The translations under genes were made by a program, and so were the position numbers. The notes under the pieces were generated by a model that saw only the letters and a list, made by a program, of their open reading frames with translations, was not told the origin of the DNA and did not search any database. Below are positions 23,783 through 63,545 of a stretch of 64,000 nt of DNA, piece after piece. Location: NCBI GenBank assembly GCA_963816185.1, contig CAWFJJ010000028.1:416001-480000 (forward strand). The letters run 5' to 3'. Numbering within the stretch: the first letter of the stretch is position 1; each line of letters begins with the position of its first letter. The stretch is from Thermoanaerobaculia bacterium. Lineage in GTDB: Bacteria > Acidobacteriota > Thermoanaerobaculia > UBA5066.

Positions 23783-23940
23783 CCGATAGTAGAAAATCTT
23801 TCGCTCGAATGGCCGGCGTCAAGGGCGCGCGTAGCGCGCCGCTAAGCGGTCTTCGACCCTTGACTCCGGCCGTTCGAGCGACGTCCGCCCCTCTTCACTT
23901 TCTAAGAAATCTTCATCCTCTTCTTCCTCTTTCTTCTTCC
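23783..23940 (+). repeat. Four-way-junction element, copy 1, with an adjacent TTCTAAGAA repeat
   Basis: 24-bp stem 23802-23825/23857-23880 enclosing three triloop hairpins; inverted homolog at 25321-25468. Confidence 0.85.
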
Positions 23941-23941
23941 A

Positions 23942-24748
23942 ATGGCTGAAGGAATCCGCATCCCCGTCCCCGCCGGTGCCGACCTCATGGGGCCGTACCC
24001 GGTGAAGCTGCCGCAGTTCGAGGGGCCGCTCGACCTGCTGCTGCACCTGATCCGGAAGAACGAGCTCGACATCCGCAACCTGCCGCTCGTCGACATCTGC
24101 CGCCAGTACCACGAGTACCTGGTCCTCATGCAGGAGCTCGACCTCGAGGTCGCGGCCGAGTTCCTCTACGTCGAGGCGATGCTCGTGCACATCAAGTCGC
24201 AGCTGGTCCTGCCGCGCGCGGCCGCGGGCGCGCCCGAAGGGGACCCGCGCGACGAGCTCGTGAGGCGCCTTCTCGAGTACCGCAAGTACAAGGGCGTCGC
24301 CGAGTCGCTGCACGAGATGGAAGCCGTGCGGCTCGGGCTCTGGAGCCGTGCGCCGGCGAAGCTCGAGACGCCGGAAGGGGAGGCCGAGGAAGCGGACCTT
24401 TCGGAAGTCTCGCTCTTCGACCTCCTCACGTTCTTCAAGGGCGCGCTCGACCGCTACCGCGCGCAGCACCCGCCCTCGATGGAGATCGAGCACCAGAAGT
24501 TCTCCATCAAGGAGAAAATGGAGCAGATGCTCGCGCGCGTGAAGTCCGGGGGTGGGCCGCTGCCGCTGTCGGACGTCTTCCGCTCTCTTTCGGGCCGGGC
24601 CGAGGCCATTGCGATCTTCCTCGCCGTCCTCGAGCTTCTCCGCCTCCGTGTCGTCAAGGCGCGGCAGGAAGGCGAGTTCAACGAGATCTACCTCGACTCG
24701 ACGGGCGAGACCGCGTCGCTCGAAGGTTACGAGGAGGCCTACCGGTGA
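23942..24748 (+). CDS. scpA: Segregation and condensation protein A
   Basis: FEGPLDLLLHLIRKNELDI, IKSQLVLP, DPRDELVRRLLEYRKYK, FLAVLEL. Confidence 0.95.
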   Translation: MAEGIRIPVPAGADLMGPYPVKLPQFEGPLDLLLHLIRKNELDIRNLPLVDICRQYHEYLVLMQELDLEVAAEFLYVEAMLVHIKSQLVLPRAAAGAPEGDPRDELVRRLLEYRKYKGVAESLHEMEAVRLGLWSRAPAKLETPEGEAEEADLSEVSLFDLLTFFKGALDRYRAQHPPSMEIEHQKFSIKEKMEQMLARVKSGGGPLPLSDVFRSLSGRAEAIAIFLAVLELLRLRVVKARQEGEFNEIYLDSTGETASLEGYEEAYR

Positions 24749-25362
24749 CGACGCACGTCGCCCTCCTCGAGGCGCTCCTCTTCGCGTCGGGCAAGCCGGC
24801 GACCGTCGAGCGCCTCGCCGAGGCCGCCGAGATCTCCAAGGAAGAGGTCGAGACCGCGCTCGAGGCGCTCGAAAAGGCGTGCGAGACCGACGGGCGAGGC
24901 GTGCGCGTCGACCGCGTCGCGGGCGGCGCGCGCCTCGTCTCGCGCAACGAATACGACCTGCCCGTCCGCAACCTGCTCGGGCTGGAGGGAAAGAACAAGC
25001 TCTCGATGGCGAGCCTCGAGGTGCTTTCGATCGTCGCGTATCGCCAGCCGGTCACCGCGCCCGAGATCGCCGAGCTCCGCGGCGTGAACTCGGCCTCCTC
25101 GCTGCGCACCCTCCTCGACAAGAAGCTCATCACGACCGCGGGGCGCAAGGAGGTCGTCGGGACGCCGTTCCTCTACAAGACGACCCGGGAGTTCCTCGTC
25201 CACTTCGGCCTCGCGGACCTGAAAGACCTCCCGCGCCCGGAGGACCTCGACGCGCTCTACGGGGTCGAGGCGAACACGGCGCAGACGGAATTGTTCCCAG
25301 AGGAGATTTCTGCTGAAGAGAAGAGGGAAGAAGAGGAAGAGGAAGATTCGGGGAATGGTTGA
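24745..25362 (+). CDS. scpB: Segregation and condensation protein B
   Basis: LEALLFAS, LEVLSIVAYRQPVTAPEIAELRGV, GTPFLYKTTREFLVHFGL. Confidence 0.95.
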   Translation: MTTHVALLEALLFASGKPATVERLAEAAEISKEEVETALEALEKACETDGRGVRVDRVAGGARLVSRNEYDLPVRNLLGLEGKNKLSMASLEVLSIVAYRQPVTAPEIAELRGVNSASSLRTLLDKKLITTAGRKEVVGTPFLYKTTREFLVHFGLADLKDLPRPEDLDALYGVEANTAQTELFPEEISAEEKREEEEEEDSGNG

Positions 25363-57294: not shown

Positions 57295-57780
57295 GTGAGC
57301 ATCAAGATGGACGTGAAAGCGCTGATCGTCGACCCGATCGCAAACATGCCGGTCGTGATCTTGCGCGACGAGGAAGAGAAGAATTTCCTGCCGATCTGGG
57401 TTGGAGTCTTCGAGGCAAACGCCATCGCGCTTCAGATGGAAGGCGTCACCACGCCCCGGCCGATGACTCACGATCTCTTGAAGAATCTCATCATACAGAT
57501 CGAGGGCGACGTGCAGCGAGTCGTCATCAACAGCCTCAAGGAAAACACGTTCTACGCCCAGATCCACCTCAGGGTCGCCAACAAGGACGTCCTCGTCGAC
57601 AGCCGGCCGTCGGATGCGATCGCACTGGCTCTCCGGCTCCAGGCGCCCGTCTTCGTCGAGGAGGCCGTCCTCGAGATGAGCCGGAACGGAGAAGACACCG
57701 CGGAAGCACAGAACGCGGAGCGCCTGAGAAAATGGCTCGAGGAAGCGGATCCGGACACTCTCGGCAAATACAGGATGTGA
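57295..57780 (+). CDS. Bifunctional nuclease family protein (DUF151)
   Basis: LPIWVGVFEANAI, PRPMTHDLL, FYA, DSRPSDAIALA. Confidence 0.93.
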   Translation: MSIKMDVKALIVDPIANMPVVILRDEEEKNFLPIWVGVFEANAIALQMEGVTTPRPMTHDLLKNLIIQIEGDVQRVVINSLKENTFYAQIHLRVANKDVLVDSRPSDAIALALRLQAPVFVEEAVLEMSRNGEDTAEAQNAERLRKWLEEADPDTLGKYRM

Positions 57781-57852
57781 TTTTCGCCGCGGGACGAACG
57801 ATTCGTCCTTGAAGCCTCCGCGCCCCCTCCGTATCATTCGCGTCGCCGGCGC

Positions 57853-58614
57853 ATGATCATCACTGTTGCAAATCAGAAAGGCGGTGTGGGGAAGACCACG
57901 ACCGCGATCAACCTTGCCGCGGCGCTTGCGCAAAAGGGTCTCCGGACTCTCCTCATCGACCTCGATCCCCAGGGCAACTCGACGATGTCCTTTCTGGATC
58001 GCAAGGACGTGGAAAAGTCGATGTACGAGGTGCTCACGGATCCGAGCGCGTCGTTCTTCGACATCGTCAAAGAGACGAGCGTCCCGAAGCTCACGATCGC
58101 GCCCGCGCGCATCTCGCTCGCGAAGGTGGAGTCGAAGCTCCTCGGTGAGCTCGACGGGCATTTTCGGCTCAAGGACAAGCTTCAGGTCGTGCGAGAATCG
58201 GGAGAGTACGACGCGATCCTCATCGACACACCGCCTACGCTCGGCATGATCACGGTGAACGCGCTCGTCGCCTCGACACACATCCTGATCCCGATTCAAT
58301 CCTCTTATTTCGCACTCGAAGGCACCGACGACCTCCTCGAGACGATCGAGAAGATCAAGAACCGGCCCAATCCGAACCTCCAGATCTTGGGCGTCGTGAT
58401 CACGCTTCACGACAAGCGCACGACGCTCGGAAAAGACATCCAGAGTCAGATCAACCAGGTCTTCAAAGACAAGCTCTTCAAGACGACGATCTCGAAGTCC
58501 ATTCGGCTGGAGGAATCGCCGGCGTATCGAGAATCCATCTTCACATTCGCTCCGCGCTCGTCAGGCGCGCTCGAGTACTACAGCCTGACTGAGGAGATCC
58601 TGTCCCGTGTCTAA
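57853..58614 (+). CDS. parA: ParA/Soj family ATPase
   Basis: ANQKGGVGKTTT, IDLDPQGN, IDTPPTLG, ESP. Confidence 0.92.
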   Translation: MIITVANQKGGVGKTTTAINLAAALAQKGLRTLLIDLDPQGNSTMSFLDRKDVEKSMYEVLTDPSASFFDIVKETSVPKLTIAPARISLAKVESKLLGELDGHFRLKDKLQVVRESGEYDAILIDTPPTLGMITVNALVASTHILIPIQSSYFALEGTDDLLETIEKIKNRPNPNLQILGVVITLHDKRTTLGKDIQSQINQVFKDKLFKTTISKSIRLEESPAYRESIFTFAPRSSGALEYYSLTEEILSRV

Positions 58615-59503
58615 GCGCCGCGGTCTGCCGGAAACTTCGCGCATGCGTCACGACTCGCACTTCGTCGAGCAGCTCGTCCGCGCGGACGAGCTGCCGGTCG
58701 GACGTCGCATTCCGATCCACCTCATCGAGGCGAATCCCGATCAGCCGCGCAGCACGATGGGAGACCTTGCGGACCTGACGAGATCGATCGTGGATAAAGG
58801 CGTCCTCGAGCCGATCCTCGTGCGTCCCCGCGGTGACGGACGCTTCACGATCATCTCCGGCGAACGGCGCTTTCGCGCCGCGCTCGACGCGGGTCTCCCG
58901 GAAATTCCGTGCATCGAGATGGACGTCGCCGACAATGAGCTGCTCGAGATCGCGCTCGTCGAGAATCTCCAGCGCAGGGACCTGAGCCCTTTCGAGGAGG
59001 CCGACGGATATAGAGCTCTTCAGGAACGCCACGGATACACGCACGAACAGATCGCAGACGCCGTGGGGAAGTCGCGCGTGACGATCACCGAAGCGCTCTC
59101 CATCGCGCGGCTCCCCGAACGCGTGCAGGTTGAATGTCGGCGCGCCGACATCGGATCGCGGTCCTTCCTCCTCGAGCTCGGAAGACTCAAGGACGAAGAC
59201 CTCATGCTCGCCGCGGTCGTGGCGATGGCGAGCGGTGAGACCTTGAGCCGCGACGTCCTGCGGGAAGCGAAGAAGGACGCGCGCCGCGGCACGAGCTCGA
59301 AGCTAGGCGGAATGAAGAGGGCGTACACACTCGATTTCGCTCCGGAGGACAAGCGCTACAAGGTCAGCCTTGTTCTCAAGGGCCGCCTCCACAAGAAGGA
59401 CGAAATCCTCGAAGCGATCCGCGATGTCGCGCGCCGAATCGAAGCGGGGGACATCGACCTCGAGGCACAGGGTCGATTCGTGAAGGCGAAAGCAAAGAAG
59501 TAG
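58607..59503 (+). CDS. parB: ParB/Spo0J family protein
   Basis: NPDQPR, GVLEPILV, SGERRFRA CTP-binding motif, ENLQRRDL, HTH THEQIADAVGKSR. Confidence 0.9.
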   Translation: MSKRRGLPETSRMRHDSHFVEQLVRADELPVGRRIPIHLIEANPDQPRSTMGDLADLTRSIVDKGVLEPILVRPRGDGRFTIISGERRFRAALDAGLPEIPCIEMDVADNELLEIALVENLQRRDLSPFEEADGYRALQERHGYTHEQIADAVGKSRVTITEALSIARLPERVQVECRRADIGSRSFLLELGRLKDEDLMLAAVVAMASGETLSRDVLREAKKDARRGTSSKLGGMKRAYTLDFAPEDKRYKVSLVLKGRLHKKDEILEAIRDVARRIEAGDIDLEAQGRFVKAKAKK

Positions 59504-59589
59504 AGACGCCCGCTCGGAGCGCTCCTCTCCGCGCGCAGGGAAGCCTCCTTCTCGACCGCCCTCATTTCGTTAGGCACGGGCTCTCCAGA

Positions 59590-59617
59590 ATTTAACATAA
59601 TAAATATTATCGGACGT
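59590..59617 (-). other. dif: dif site (XerC/XerD chromosome dimer resolution)
   Basis: Minus strand reads ACGTCCGATAA TATTTA TTATGTTAAAT. The XerD arm is identical to that of E. coli dif and the layout is 11-6-11. Confidence 0.9.
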
Positions 59618-59688
59618 TGCGCATTGGCGCTGGAATCGGCCCGAAAAGAGCACAAGAGAATCTTCTTCTTCGTCTTACCATCGGTTCC

Positions 59689-61992
59689 GTGTTGCGGCGC
59701 GTGGATCGCTACGTCTTCCGCGAGGTTCTGGCGCCCACGTTCGTGGGCTTCCTCGCGTACACGGGCTTCATGGCCGTCCGGGGTCTCGTGCAGTTCTCGG
59801 AGCTGCTCGTGCAGAGCGAGCAGCCGTTCGTCGAGGCCGGCCTCGTCGTCGCCCTCTCGCTCCCGCACATCGTCGTCCTCACGCTTCCCATCGCGTTTCT
59901 CCTGGGGCTCCTCATCGGAATCGGACGGCTTTCAGCCGACTCCGAGCTGACCGCCCTTCGCGCCTCGGGCGTCGACCTGCTGTCCCTTTACAGACCGATC
60001 GCAATCCTCGCGGTCGCGATCGGCGCCGCGACGCTCGCGCTGATGCTCGGCGTCGTCCCGAGGACGAACCATCTCCTCTATGCGATGAAGCTCCGCCTCT
60101 CCAGCTTCGCGTTCGCCCAGCGCATCCAGCCGGGCGTCTTCAGCCCCGAGATCGCCGGATTCAGGGTTTACGCCGAGGGAGCTTCGCCCGACCGCCGGGA
60201 GCTCACGGGCCTCATCATCTCGGATCGCTCCAGCCCCGAGGGCGAAAGGCTGACGCTCGCAAAGCGAGGCTGGCTGGAGCTGGAGGAGGACCAGGGCCGG
60301 CTCTGGCTGCGCGTCGAGGACGCCGAGACCCATCACATGCAGGCGGGCGGCGCCCGATACGACATCACGTCCTTCTCGGAGCACCGCATGGTCCTCCAGG
60401 ACAACGGCCCGACCGGCGGCGTCACGGAAAAGCAGATCCGCGAGCAAACGCTGCGCGAGCTTCTCGAACGCGCCGCTGCCCGTACACGCCGGCCGGAGGA
60501 CCGCAGGCTCGCGCTCACGGAGGTCCACAAGAAGTTCGCTCTGCCGTCGGCGTGTCTCGTCTTCGGCCTCATCGGGCTGCCCCTCGGCATCGTCAACCGG
60601 CGCGGAGGGCGCGCGGCCGGGTTCGCCGTGTCCGTCGCGATCGTGCTTCTCTACTACGCCCTTCTCGCCACGGGCGAAGCGCGGGCGATCGAAGGCCGAA
60701 TGTCGCCGGCTCTCGCCATGTGGCTGCCAAACCTCATCCTTCTGGCGTTCGGCGCTTTCGCACTCGACCGCGTGCGGCGTGACAAGGAGATCTTCTCCTT
60801 TCCCATGAGCGCCGCCGCACCCGTCGCCGCGACCGCGACGCCGGCGTCCGGCCAGGCGCCCGTGGCCGAAAAGGGCCCGGGCCTCCCGGCCCGACGGGCT
60901 CCGTTTCCGGGCCTTCTCCTCATCGACCGCTACGTCGCACGGCGATTTCTCGGCACATTCGCCCTCGTCGTGACCTCGATCGCGACGCTCTACGTGCTGA
61001 TCGACTACCTCGAGATCTCCGACGACATCGCCCGCCATCGACCCCCGACGACTCTCATCCTGCGTTACTACCAGGCCTTCCTGTCTCCGATCATCCTAGA
61101 CATCGTGCCGTTCGCGTTTCTCGTGGCCGCGCTCGTGACCATCGCGAGCCTCGTACGCTCCGGCGAGACGACCGCACTTCTCGCGCACGGGGTCTCTCTC
61201 TATCGAACCACGGCTCCCCTTCTCGTGCTCGCCGTGGCGGCCGGAGCCGGACTCTTCGTTTTCGCCGAGCGCGTCGTTCCGGCGGCGGCTTCGGAATCCG
61301 ACCGAATCCGGTTCCTGCTCAAGGGACAGAAGCCTCCTCTCAGCGGGGCCGGCGGGGCCTGGTTCCGAGGCGACGGAGGACGCTTTCTCGCGGCGGACGC
61401 ATACGATCCCGCCTCTCGCGTCGCGAGCGGCGTCACGGTGCTTCAAATCGACCCCGCGAGATGGAGGCTCGTCTCACGCCACGACGCGACCCGGGCGCGC
61501 GTCGTGCCGGGCAAGGGCCTTCTCGCGGAAAGCGGTTGGATCCGGACGTTCTCGCCGGGCAACGTTCTGGCCATCCGGCGCGACGATCCGTTTTTGATCG
61601 AGGCGCCGGAGGCCGCCGCCGGCTTTGCCGCCGGACGGGCCGACCCGCGTCAAATGACGTTCCGTGAGCTCTCGCACTTCATCGACGTCCGTCGCAGGGC
61701 CGGGGCCGACACGGCGGCTCTTGCGACGGGTCTCCACCAGAAGACCGCGGTGGCGGCGTCCTCTCTTCTTCTCACGCTCATCGGACTCCCCTTCGCGTTC
61801 GCGTACGGAAAGCGCGGGGCCGTGGCGGGAGTCGGCGTCGCGCTTTTCCTCGGCCTGACGTATCTGTTCCTCTCCGCGCTTCTCGTCTCGTTCGGGCAGC
61901 AGGGCGCGATCCCGCCTTTCCTCGCTGCATGGGCCCCGAACATCTTCTTCGGTCTCGGCGCAGCGTGGGGATTGCTTGGAGTGAGAACGTAG
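59689..61992 (+). CDS. Fused LptF-LptG LPS export permease
   Basis: Two YjgP/Q units: RVDRYVFRE..GRLSADSELTALRASG and LIDRYVARRF..GETTALLAHG; both end in W.PN motifs. Confidence 0.9.
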   Translation: MLRRVDRYVFREVLAPTFVGFLAYTGFMAVRGLVQFSELLVQSEQPFVEAGLVVALSLPHIVVLTLPIAFLLGLLIGIGRLSADSELTALRASGVDLLSLYRPIAILAVAIGAATLALMLGVVPRTNHLLYAMKLRLSSFAFAQRIQPGVFSPEIAGFRVYAEGASPDRRELTGLIISDRSSPEGERLTLAKRGWLELEEDQGRLWLRVEDAETHHMQAGGARYDITSFSEHRMVLQDNGPTGGVTEKQIREQTLRELLERAAARTRRPEDRRLALTEVHKKFALPSACLVFGLIGLPLGIVNRRGGRAAGFAVSVAIVLLYYALLATGEARAIEGRMSPALAMWLPNLILLAFGAFALDRVRRDKEIFSFPMSAAAPVAATATPASGQAPVAEKGPGLPARRAPFPGLLLIDRYVARRFLGTFALVVTSIATLYVLIDYLEISDDIARHRPPTTLILRYYQAFLSPIILDIVPFAFLVAALVTIASLVRSGETTALLAHGVSLYRTTAPLLVLAVAAGAGLFVFAERVVPAAASESDRIRFLLKGQKPPLSGAGGAWFRGDGGRFLAADAYDPASRVASGVTVLQIDPARWRLVSRHDATRARVVPGKGLLAESGWIRTFSPGNVLAIRRDDPFLIEAPEAAAGFAAGRADPRQMTFRELSHFIDVRRRAGADTAALATGLHQKTAVAASSLLLTLIGLPFAFAYGKRGAVAGVGVALFLGLTYLFLSALLVSFGQQGAIPPFLAAWAPNIFFGLGAAWGLLGVRT

Positions 61993-62177: not shown

Positions 62178-63545
<1,368 letters not shown>

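Follow-up and report, generated by a model that had tools for sequence, protein, structure and literature searches.

A ParA-ParB pair beside dif in Thermoanaerobaculia and a candidate non-canonical parS of its ParB subfamily

Genes and Features of the Locus

The locus lies in a 64-kb stretch of DNA (hereafter the window) from a Thermoanaerobaculia (Acidobacteriota) MAG (GCA_963816185.1, contig CAWFJJ010000028.1, positions 416,001-480,000, forward strand), and these 64 kb are the sequence seen of that genome. Genes were called with a codon log-odds model trained on the Pfam-confirmed genes of the window. The comparison set was the loci of 43 relatives at species level whose ParB belongs to the same subfamily (up to 21 kb seen per relative), and 37 loci with a canonical ParB served as the control set. 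As listed in Table 1, the locus consists of a BFN (DUF151) gene, a Soj-type parA, parB, a 28-bp dif site and a fused lptFG gene.

Table 1. Features of the parAB-dif locus (positions are those of the window).
Feature	Position	Strand	Basis or remark
BFN (DUF151, bifunctional nuclease domain) gene	57295..57780	+	PF02577, E 6e-42
Sigma-70-like promoter match in the BFN-parA spacer	57809..57837	+	TTGAAG-17-TATCAT, 9/12 positions; consensus match only
parA, Soj-type deviant Walker A ATPase, 253 aa	57853..58614	+	AAA_31, E 1e-56; AAA_31/CbiA
parB, distinct Acidobacteriota subfamily	58607..59503	+	ParB_N + HTH_ParB; Pfam, NCBIfam
Candidate non-canonical parS, perfect 16-bp palindrome TGTCGGCGCGCCGACA	59135..59150		Within parB; cross-locus comparison
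AT-rich imperfect inverted repeat in the parB-dif interval	59560..59576		By eye; GCCT-TA...TA-AGGC type in close relatives
dif (XerC arm, 6-bp centre, XerD arm)	59590..59617	-	Degenerate-pattern match and conservation
Fused lptF-lptG	59689..61992	+	PF03739 twice; TIGR04407 and TIGR04408 above cut-offs
ahcY	62178..63545	-	AdoHcyase; opens the oppositely oriented block and marks the orientation switch

An earlier, sequence-only reading of this DNA had named a Soj-like ParA and a ParB with a GERRFRA motif, preceded by a DUF151 nuclease gene, and all three genes are borne out by the profile matches and translations. The order BFN-parA-parB is conserved among the family loci, with a BFN homologue immediately 5′ of parA in every locus that has upstream DNA, and almost all relatives preserve the gene order of the wider block that runs from rpoN to lptFG. 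The synteny check proposed in that reading was carried out, and the succession of DUF151, parA, parB, dif and lptFG proved to be largely kept: dif lies 3′ of parB in 40 of the 43 relatives, that is, in all 40 that have DNA 3′ of parB, and the remaining 3 contigs stop less than 80 bp from the gene.

The BFN protein is related to TM0160 (PDB 1vjl, E 1e-28), and its participation in the partition system is putative. ParA is a small deviant Walker A protein without an N-terminal HTH, carrying NQKGGVGKTT near its N-terminus, and its closest solved relatives are the chromosomal ParA/Soj proteins (8ray, E 3e-52; Thermus 1wcv, E 7e-51). The 3′ end of parA overlaps the start of parB by 8 nt.

The ParB Protein and Its Recognition Residues

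The translation of parB contains GERRFRA and KSRVTITEALSIARL, and the protein scores 141 bits against TIGR00180 (cut-off 58). It matches the ParB structures of Thermus, Caulobacter and Myxococcus in sequence (E 1e-38 to 1e-34). In fold, its AF2 model (pLDDT 80) leads in Foldseek to ParB and Noc (6t1f_D, TMt 0.82), and KorB is found among both the sequence and the fold matches. The predicted N-terminal CTP-binding domain (PF02195) carries the GERRxRA box and resembles CTP- and CDP-bound ParBs in fold; in an alignment of 34 family members, G85, R87 and R88 of this box are invariant and E86 is nearly so.

The subfamily has an N-terminal signature KRRGLP....MRHD.H(F/Y)VE and a recognition helix GKSR...TE.LS. 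At the place of the ParA-stimulating peptide stands the variant KRRGLP followed by MRHD.HYVE, in which G6, L7 and P8 are invariant and the model has a pLDDT of 42-52. The C-terminal region does not match Pfam ParB_C (PF23552), which canonical acidobacterial ParBs do match. For residues 232-298 a homodimer is predicted with an ipSAE of 0.46 against 0.00 for the best control, a value attained by 20 of the 30 proteins whose solved structures are pairs and by 1 of the 23 whose solved structures are single chains; these benchmark counts are only rough, the alignment being our own, and resemblance to solved ParB dimers may contribute to the score. Contacts agree by at least 69% between runs, with a pLDDT of at least 69.

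The recognition helix had been described as departing from the Spo0J pattern, and the alignment and the subfamily signature locate the differences at parS-contacting positions. Where the canonical helix has AN.LRLL, this ParB has TE.LS. In Caulobacter numbering R173 is kept, N178 is changed to E, R181 to S, and GHAR to SRSF; the E at the N178 position is the invariant E162 of the 34 aligned family members. According to the part of PMC7383237 drawn on here, parS is contacted by N178 and R204, both of which are conserved in ParB and Noc. That is to say, the residues R173, N178, G201 and R204, which read the canonical parS, are only partly retained, and this supports an altered DNA specificity of the subfamily.

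The dif Site

The dif-like site had been reported 86 bp after parB, and it was indeed found to start 86 bp past the stop codon. It differs at 1 position from a 28-nt degenerate pattern after the proteobacterial consensus of Carnoy and Roten; it is the only match with up to 3 mismatches in the window, and none of 100 shuffled sequences matches. The site is present in a single copy in the window and once per locus, and its conservation holds at ParB identities down to 45%, while none of the 37 canonical-ParB loci has it. Its right arm is presumably identical to the E. coli XerD arm. Among 41 dif sites, hardly any variation is seen at positions 3-11 and 17-23, and the centre positions 12 and 15 are split 23/18 and 25/14; fixed arms with a freer centre are typical of a Xer site. 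One locus (L036) stands apart, with 3 mismatches in its best dif-like site, which is 9 kb off.

No XerC/XerD-type recombinase and no FtsK is encoded in the 64-kb window, and no recombinase lies between parB and dif in the four loci L038-L041, where the inserts encode a WG-repeat protein, a GDSL lipase and proteins without a Pfam match. The inverted repeat between parB and dif keeps, by eye, a similar spacing from the XerD arm in close relatives; it may be an accessory site, or else part of an lptFG promoter, namely its -35 region. In some relatives, extra Xer-arm-like half sites occur close to dif.

Gene Orientation and Base Composition around dif

The first gene past dif is lptFG, whose reading frame is open from 59617 and whose likely start according to the codon model is a GTG; it is the sole plus-strand gene there. 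On the left of dif, 459 genes lie on the plus and 15 on the minus strand; on the right, 208 lie on the minus and 55 on the plus strand, and 38 of these 55 are lptFG. In 32 of the 35 loci with at least 3 right-side genes, the minus strand carries 80% or more of the right-side genes that follow the first. The strand bias in the window spans 62 kb and flips at dif, so that genes converge on the parAB-dif locus rather than diverge from it, as they would at an origin-proximal location.

Majority-strand genes on the two sides have similar GC3 skews along the coding strand (-0.083 and -0.095), and the values of minority-strand genes lie further below zero (-0.15 to -0.215, from small and related sets of 4, 13 and 11 genes), a pattern that fits converging forks. 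The total GC skew shows no change of sign at dif (-0.012 on the left, -0.028 on the right) and drifts downward throughout the window. The motif GGGNAGGG, known from E. coli, occurs 20 times on the plus and 9 times on the minus strand left of dif, and 6 and 14 times on the right, counts that are confounded with gene orientation. Origin genes had been said to be absent near parAB, and a Pfam scan of 63 ORFs agrees: no dnaA, dnaN, gid, rnpA or yidC was found in the 64 kb, nor any cluster of DnaA boxes, the 2 one-mismatch matches being equalled in 39 of 100 shuffles. The conserved dif and the converging gene orientation thus support the placement of the locus at a terminus-like point.

A Palindrome Tied to the ParB Subfamily

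The best match to the canonical parS in the window has 3 mismatches, which 19 of 100 shuffles equal, and a search for repeated palindromes within the window alone gave nothing useful. The earlier statement that no convincing parS was visible therefore stands for the canonical site, which is at chance level; it does not stand for centromere-like sites at large, since comparison across loci, by which alone the site surfaced, brought out the palindrome TGTCGGCGCGCCGACA. It becomes 18 bp long when the flanking A/T is counted, and no other match with fewer than 3 mismatches exists in the 64-kb window.

Each locus (up to 21 kb) holds one copy. Among 44 sequences (the 43 loci and the window), the palindrome is perfect in 39, has 1-2 mismatches in 4, and is missing in 1 that lacks upstream DNA; among the 37 canonical-ParB control loci it was found in none. 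In the window and 36 of the 43 loci it lies about 530 bp inside parB, where it encodes the residues C-R-R-A-D-I. In the window it is 455 bp from dif, and in the family the in-gene palindromes are 0.4-1.6 kb from dif. The window and 34 loci share the codons TGT CGG CGC GCC GAC AT without change, and the neighbouring codons vary; synonymous positions under the palindrome are invariant in the family loci, and one locus (L002) has a single mismatch in its in-gene copy. In four relatives (L037, L039, L040 and L043) ParB lacks CRRADI, and the same palindrome sits instead in the BFN-parA spacer; a fifth ParB (L041) also lacks the peptide, on a contig from which the upstream DNA is missing. In the wider family the peptide is restricted to CR[RLHQ]ADI (CRLADI in 120 of 120 Vicinamibacterales-like proteins), and therefore only the central 2 nt of the palindrome are free.

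These comparisons support a constraint at the DNA level and a tie between the palindrome and this ParB subfamily, and they make TGTCGGCGCGCCGACA a candidate non-canonical parS. The earlier proposal that this ParB uses a non-canonical site has thus gained a concrete candidate. A full-text literature search, to which subscription journals were largely outside, returned neither the palindrome nor a natural terminus-proximal ParABS.

Proposed Role at the Replication Terminus

It is moderately probable that the locus is a complete ParABS of a distinct acidobacterial ParB subfamily, with its candidate centromere beside dif at the replication terminus. ParB dimers, acting as CTP-gated clamps, would load onto DNA at the palindrome and from there spread across the adjacent DNA, dif included, and ParA-ATP on the nucleoid would position the ParB complex. 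A lone copy would be kept at mid-nucleoid, and a pair would be pushed apart after the terminus has been replicated; by positioning the complex of ParB and palindrome, the system would position and separate the sister termini near the sites where FtsK and XerCD act.

The sister class Vicinamibacteria bears on the relation of this system to the canonical one. Both ParB types occur there at class level, and the canonical type adjoins dnaA (dnaA-dnaN in Vicinamibacterales and Luteitalea); in a search with the canonical representative P0217, all the named relatives were Vicinamibacteria. Because this ParB type stands there alongside a canonical, origin-proximal ParABS, the terminus ParABS is probably a paralogue dedicated to the terminus that supplements the canonical system and does not replace it.

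A more specific version is put forward tentatively: in a dedicated terminus ParABS, ParB would load at its private palindrome, and until the terminus is replicated, ParA would hold it at mid-nucleoid, below where the septum will form, and would separate the copies after replication and XerCD/FtsK resolution. In Thermoanaerobaculia the palindrome could even be the only chromosomal centromere, and segregation would then be organised from the terminus, not from the origin. Two cautions apply to the coupling with dif. Since the synteny of the relatives extends, with few exceptions, over all of rpoN to lptFG, the parB-dif adjacency could be inherited and not itself selected, and a ParB complex that extends over dif could get in the way of XerCD or FtsK, contrary to a helpful coupling.

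It is unlikely, though worth weighing first, that this is an ordinary origin-acting ParABS whose genes lie near dif by chance, with functional centromeres formed by palindrome copies near oriC and the in-gene copy incidental or minor. The data cover a small part of each genome, the adjacency may be inherited as just described, and 12 of 20 canonical-ParB loci checked have a canonical parS (at most 1 mismatch) about 1 kb 5′ of parB; canonical systems commonly have parS inside or beside parB. Against it, exactly one palindrome is seen in the 64-kb window and one per locus, and ParB loaded at the in-window copy is necessarily about 0.5 kb from dif. Moreover, the separate canonical ParABS at dnaA in Vicinamibacteria leaves no obvious origin role for the paralogue there.

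Rather improbable is that the palindrome is an operator and ParB mainly a KorB-like transcriptional regulator of parAB or its neighbours, with no centromere involved. Some ParB-family proteins do regulate, KorB is among the matches, and in the four relatives with a spacer copy the palindrome occupies the place expected of a promoter. Such a role fits poorly with the window and the 36 loci in which the palindrome is 3′ of any parAB promoter, with the cognate Soj-type ParA that is always encoded alongside, and with the retained CTP box and ParA-type N-terminal basic peptide.

The terminus placement itself would fall if the 28-mer were not a working chromosomal dif but a relic or accessory Xer site, or if the gene convergence were merely local and the locus not a terminus. 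The lack of a total GC skew switch at the 28-mer and the half sites in some relatives point that way. We consider it very improbable, given the conserved arms and variable centre of the 41 sites across distant ParBs, the 62-kb strand bias that flips at dif and the GC3 skew. In addition, a strong correlation exists between where dif lies and the skew shift-point opposite the origin (PMC3025954, in part).

Plasmids often combine partition genes with a multimer-resolution site, and some mobile elements integrate at dif; that parAB is a remnant of a plasmid or of a Xer-integrated element inserted at dif is nevertheless scarcely credible, since all 3894 matching PLSDB records are below 60% identity (none close, the best mainly over the N-terminal domain), core genes neighbour parAB in an order conserved in 43 species, window Pfam scans show no integrase, rep or transfer genes nearby, Rfam and tRNA scans of the region give no matches, and there is one dif, not a flanking pair, all in keeping with the sequence-only reading, which had seen core-gene neighbours and no plasmid or phage markers.

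Comparison with Known Systems

Chromosomal ParABS is regarded as an origin-segregation system, and the handling of the terminus is credited to unrelated, lineage-specific factors. Like canonical ParABS (Soj/Spo0J; Thermus 1vz0, Caulobacter 6t1f, Myxococcus 7bnk), the acidobacterial system has a Soj-type ParA beside parB, a ParB with a CTP-binding domain carrying GERRxRA, an HTH, the ParB fold and a predicted C-terminal dimer, and a 16-bp palindrome in or beside the operon, in which the outer TGT...ACA of the canonical consensus is kept. It differs in the inner ten bases of the palindrome and the absence of a canonical parS from the window, in the replacement of N178, R181, G201 and R204, in an N-terminal peptide of the form KRRGLP..MRHD.HYVE where the canonical one is GLGRGL, and in the missing ParB_C match. 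Furthermore, the locus stands at dif and not at oriC, whereas parS is most often near the origin (PMC7333895, in part).

The Noc/NBS system of Firmicutes is also a case of a ParB paralogue in which changes within the corresponding helix region have shifted recognition to another 16-bp palindrome (PMC7383237, in part), and it sets a precedent for an additional ParB-type protein that acts outside the origin. Noc has no ParA partner, its N-terminal amphipathic membrane helix replacing the ParA-stimulating peptide (PMC7333895, in part). N178 is kept in Noc and replaced in the acidobacterial ParB, which does not pass the Noc-specific model TIGR04285 (141.9 bits, cut-off 315).

In Vibrio chromosome 2 and the Burkholderia replicons, paralogous ParAB pairs with a private centromere coexist with the canonical system; those lie near the origin of a separate replicon, whereas the present pair lies among core genes of the main chromosome, at the terminus. 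With MatP/matS of enterobacteria and with ZapT, which is reportedly a terminus organiser of Caulobacter, the likeness would be in the proposed job only, namely placing the terminus with respect to the site of division; no ParA motor takes part, and the proteins are not related.

If the proposed reading is right, the helix substitutions E/S/R, which accompany a CGGCG core instead of the canonical inner bases, make up a candidate ParB-DNA recognition pair that would be useful for studies of ParB specificity and for orthogonal DNA labelling. It would also mean that a natural ParABS paralogue stands beside dif class-wide in a major soil phylum, with the ParA/ParB-CTP machinery redeployed to the opposite chromosome pole. 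A further parallel is Bacillus subtilis with an engineered terminus-proximal parS, where the ParB-dependent machinery is still recruited far from the origin (PMC4536313, in part); that arrangement is artificial, whereas the acidobacterial one is natural and conserved.

Gene content and conserved order of the locus

The ORF and domain scans gave the BFN/DUF151 gene, parA and parB as the sequence-only reading had described them, and the 28-mer that it had proposed as dif was also recovered (see the table). No tRNA was found in the window, none of the 63 ORFs scanned in it is an origin gene, as the sequence-only reading had stated, and no DnaA-box cluster was found in the 64 kb. The GTG start of parB and the 3′ end of parA share 8 nt (58607–58614), which suggests translational coupling. 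LptF and LptG form a single fusion protein of 768–791 aa in the window and most relatives, while in the related locus L043 they are two separate genes, further from dif. In addition, scpA and scpB, which encode the SMC kleisin and its partner, are located on the same strand at 23909–25362, roughly 34 kb away from the candidate parS.

Positions of the main features of the locus in the window
Feature	Position	Strand	Description
BFN/DUF151 gene	57295–57780		ORF and domain assignment
Soj-type parA	57853–58614		ORF and domain assignment
parB	58607–59503		ParB_N and HTH_ParB domains, intact GERRFRA box
Candidate parS palindrome	59135–59150		parB codons 177–182 (C-R-R-A-D-I); 455 bp from dif
dif 28-mer	59590–59617	minus-strand reading	starts 86 bp past the parB stop
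Fused lptF–lptG	59617–61992	same as parB	beyond dif
ahcY		minus (opposite)	after lptFG

A scan of species-representative genomes yielded 80 loci. The same ParB subfamily is encoded in L001–L043, with identities of 45–94% and matches from residues 1–4 in most, and the hosts are all Thermoanaerobaculia or unclassified Acidobacteriota MAGs; the other 37 (L044–L080), with canonical-type ParBs from other lineages, served as controls. The order rpoN-hpf-hprK-rapZ-EIIA-HPr-ptsI-cupin-x-miaB-BFN-parA-parB-dif-lptFG is preserved in nearly all 43 subfamily loci, and with it the DUF151-parA-parB-dif-lptFG synteny that had been singled out for checking in relatives.

The ParB subfamily and its recognition helix

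ParB aligns with its Thermus, Caulobacter and Myxococcus counterparts at E-values of 1e-38 to 1e-34, and the nearest folds of its AlphaFold model (34-sequence alignment, mean pLDDT 80) are ParB and Noc structures (6t1f_D, TMt 0.82). With the Noc model it scores 142 bits, below the cut-off of 315, and it has no match to Pfam ParB_C. Its last 67 residues are predicted to form a homodimer, with a score of 0.46 vs 0.00 for the best control (contact agreement between runs at least 69%, pLDDT at least 69); among proteins of solved structure, 20 of the 30 pairs and 1 of the 23 single chains attain this score, counts that are only rough because the alignment was built by the authors.

That the recognition helix departs from the usual Spo0J pattern, as first read, agrees with both the alignment and a survey of 105 representatives (≥250 aa) taken from 50%-identity clusters that were searched exhaustively. 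A sizeable group among them has the N-terminus KRGLP....MRHD.H(F/Y)VE, not GLGRGL, and the helix GKSR...TE.LS., not GKSR..(V/I)AN.LRLL. Some representatives in the series P0178–P0221 have the TE-type helix with another N-terminus lacking the MRHD motif; the change in the helix may predate the subfamily linked to dif or extend beyond it. According to the portion of Jalal et al. (2020, PMC7383237) drawn on here, N178 and R204, both conserved in ParB and Noc, contact parS, and R173 forms a bond to the outer guanine in the half-site. In the window ParB, the R173 equivalent is retained, N178 is replaced by a Glu that is invariant across the family alignment, R181 by Ser, A184 by Arg, and the GHAR stretch by SRSF.

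A candidate non-canonical parS

The initial view that there was no convincing parS stands for the canonical site, whose best match in the window has 3 mismatches (equalled in 19 of 100 shuffles), but not for a candidate site private to the subfamily. When all palindromes made up of a half-site, a gap and its reverse complement were screened in subfamily loci against controls, one 16-bp palindrome stood out: TGTCGGCGCGCCGACA. The window and 38 loci carry a perfect copy; L002, L037 and L039 deviate from it at one position and L036 at two, and only L041, where the upstream DNA is missing, has none. The palindrome occurs at most once per subfamily locus, is the sole match below three mismatches in the window, and is found at ≤2 mismatches in none of the 37 controls.

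Every synonymous position of the palindrome codons is identical in the window and 34 loci, while the neighbouring codons vary; in L002 these codons carry its single mismatch. In the ParBs of L037, L039, L040, L041 and L043, AQALGI or VQALGV replaces CRRADI, and in all of these except L041 the palindrome has moved to the BFN–parA spacer. Since the sequence stays the same whether its position is coding or non-coding, this pattern indicates that the palindrome is constrained as DNA. The peptide of the wider family is CR[RLHQ]ADI, which leaves freedom in the palindrome at the central dinucleotide alone; the CRLADI of the Vicinamibacterales-like group (120 of 120 proteins) matches the L036 variant, TGTCGGCTGGCCGACA.

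The dif site and its link with parB

The 28-mer has one mismatch to a degenerate dif pattern and is its sole match at ≤3 mismatches in the 64 kb; none of 100 shuffles matched. At ≤4 mismatches, 40 of 43 subfamily loci and 0 of 37 controls have a dif downstream of parB, and in the three without a match (L018, L025, L031) the contig stops about 80 bp or less past parB. Across 41 dif sites, arm positions 3–11 and 17–23 are almost invariant and centre positions 12 and 15 variable, the signature expected of an Xer site.

Counted from the parB stop, dif is about 60 bp to 1.6 kb away, except in L036, whose best dif-like site (3 mismatches) is at 9 kb. In 8 of the 40 loci (L027, L030, L032, L034, L036, L038, L040, L043) the site is reversed with respect to parB and lptFG, and in several of them the flanking genes are unchanged around the 28 bp. 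Because the order from rpoN to lptFG is nearly universal, the parB–dif adjacency could be inherited synteny that was not itself under selection. Three observations argue against mere inertia: unrelated genes lie between parB and dif in L038–L041, yet the separation stays within 1.6 kb; dif flips; and miaB-BFN-parA-parB are still together in the rearranged L036.

By eye, extra XerD-arm-like and XerC-arm-like half sites, some of them paired in inverted orientation, adjoin dif in relatives that are more distant, 100–120 bp before it in L024, L026, L033 and L042 and just after it in L027 and L029. In Bacillus, XerD sites unload SMC; the extra half sites may be analogues of these, accessory Xer sites or integration relics. 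An AT-rich imperfect inverted repeat is present about 15–20 bp from the XerD arm (59560–59576, with an equivalent in L001–L022), and the repeat and the AT-rich dif could jointly form the promoter of lptFG, in which case there would be overlap between XerCD binding and transcription of lptFG.

Terminus signals

Gene calling by codon log-odds, with the Pfam-confirmed genes of the window as training set, puts 55 of the 57 genes called before 62 kb on the plus strand, and the minus-strand ahcY follows. This bias over positions 1–62000 is extreme; a weaker one is expected in a Gram-negative lineage without PolC. In the window and 40 loci pooled, 459 genes left of dif are plus and 15 minus, and on the right 55 are plus and 208 minus, with 38 of the 55 being the first gene, lptFG. 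After that gene, the minus strand holds at least 80% of right-side genes in 32 of the 35 loci having at least three (exceptions L040, L041 and L043). The locus behaves as a terminus.

No switch of total GC skew appeared at dif: it is −0.012 left and −0.028 right of dif, without sign change. A strong correlation of the location of dif with the skew shift-point opposite the origin is described in the part of Kono et al. (2011, PMC3025954) used here. The coding-strand third-position GC skew of majority-strand genes is similar on the two sides (−0.083 and −0.095) and that of minority-strand genes, in small and related sets, is more negative (−0.15 to −0.215), a pattern that fits forks converging at dif. 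A KOPS-type octamer points toward dif from both sides, with 20 plus vs 9 minus on the left and 6 vs 14 on the right, counts confounded with gene orientation.

Interpretation

The best-supported explanation, and on balance a probable one, is that the ParABS is a paralogue which has its own candidate centromere beside dif at the terminus. By the established family behaviour set out in the part of PMC7333895 consulted, ParB would load and then spread over dif, and ParA would drive positioning and separation of the termini. An origin-acting ParABS, served by additional copies of the palindrome in other parts of the genome, keeps a small but real chance. It is improbable that the palindrome, within parB in most loci and in the spacer before parA in four, is an operator for transcriptional control. 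With the unswitched total GC skew on one side and the Xer-site signature and gene orientation on the other, a non-functional or non-terminal dif is very improbable. A plasmid or mobile-element relic can hardly be entertained, since no plasmid homologue reaches 60% identity, mobile-element genes are absent from the locus, and plasmid genes, as first noted, are absent from the 63 window ORFs.

For the terminus-proximal paralogue, a full-text search with most subscription journals outside its coverage returned neither a description of a natural system of this kind nor a match to the palindrome.

Comparison with canonical ParABS

A search with the subfamily representative P0127 led to proteins named Vicinamibacterales. 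A canonical ParB (GKDRSS.AN..RLL.LP, with a ParB_C domain) and, about 1 kb upstream, a canonical parS (≤1 mismatch) are present in loci of Vicinamibacterales, Luteitalea and other Acidobacteriota, so both ParB types occur in Vicinamibacteria at class level. Two of the controls, L071 and L075, have the textbook origin arrangement dnaN-dnaA, rnpA-yidC-jag-(mnmE-mnmG-rsmG)-parA-parB; dnaN and dnaA are on one strand and the genes from rnpA to parB diverge on the other (L071 641–10744, L075 1094–10762), with a canonical parS near the rsmG/parA junction.

Compared with canonical parS, the palindrome retains the outer TGT...ACA, where R173 acts, and has other inner bases, at the place of the helix changes; we infer that kept bases and kept R173, and changed bases and changed helix, are paired. 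The ParABS machinery here is the known one, and what would be new is its DNA specificity and its chromosomal address.
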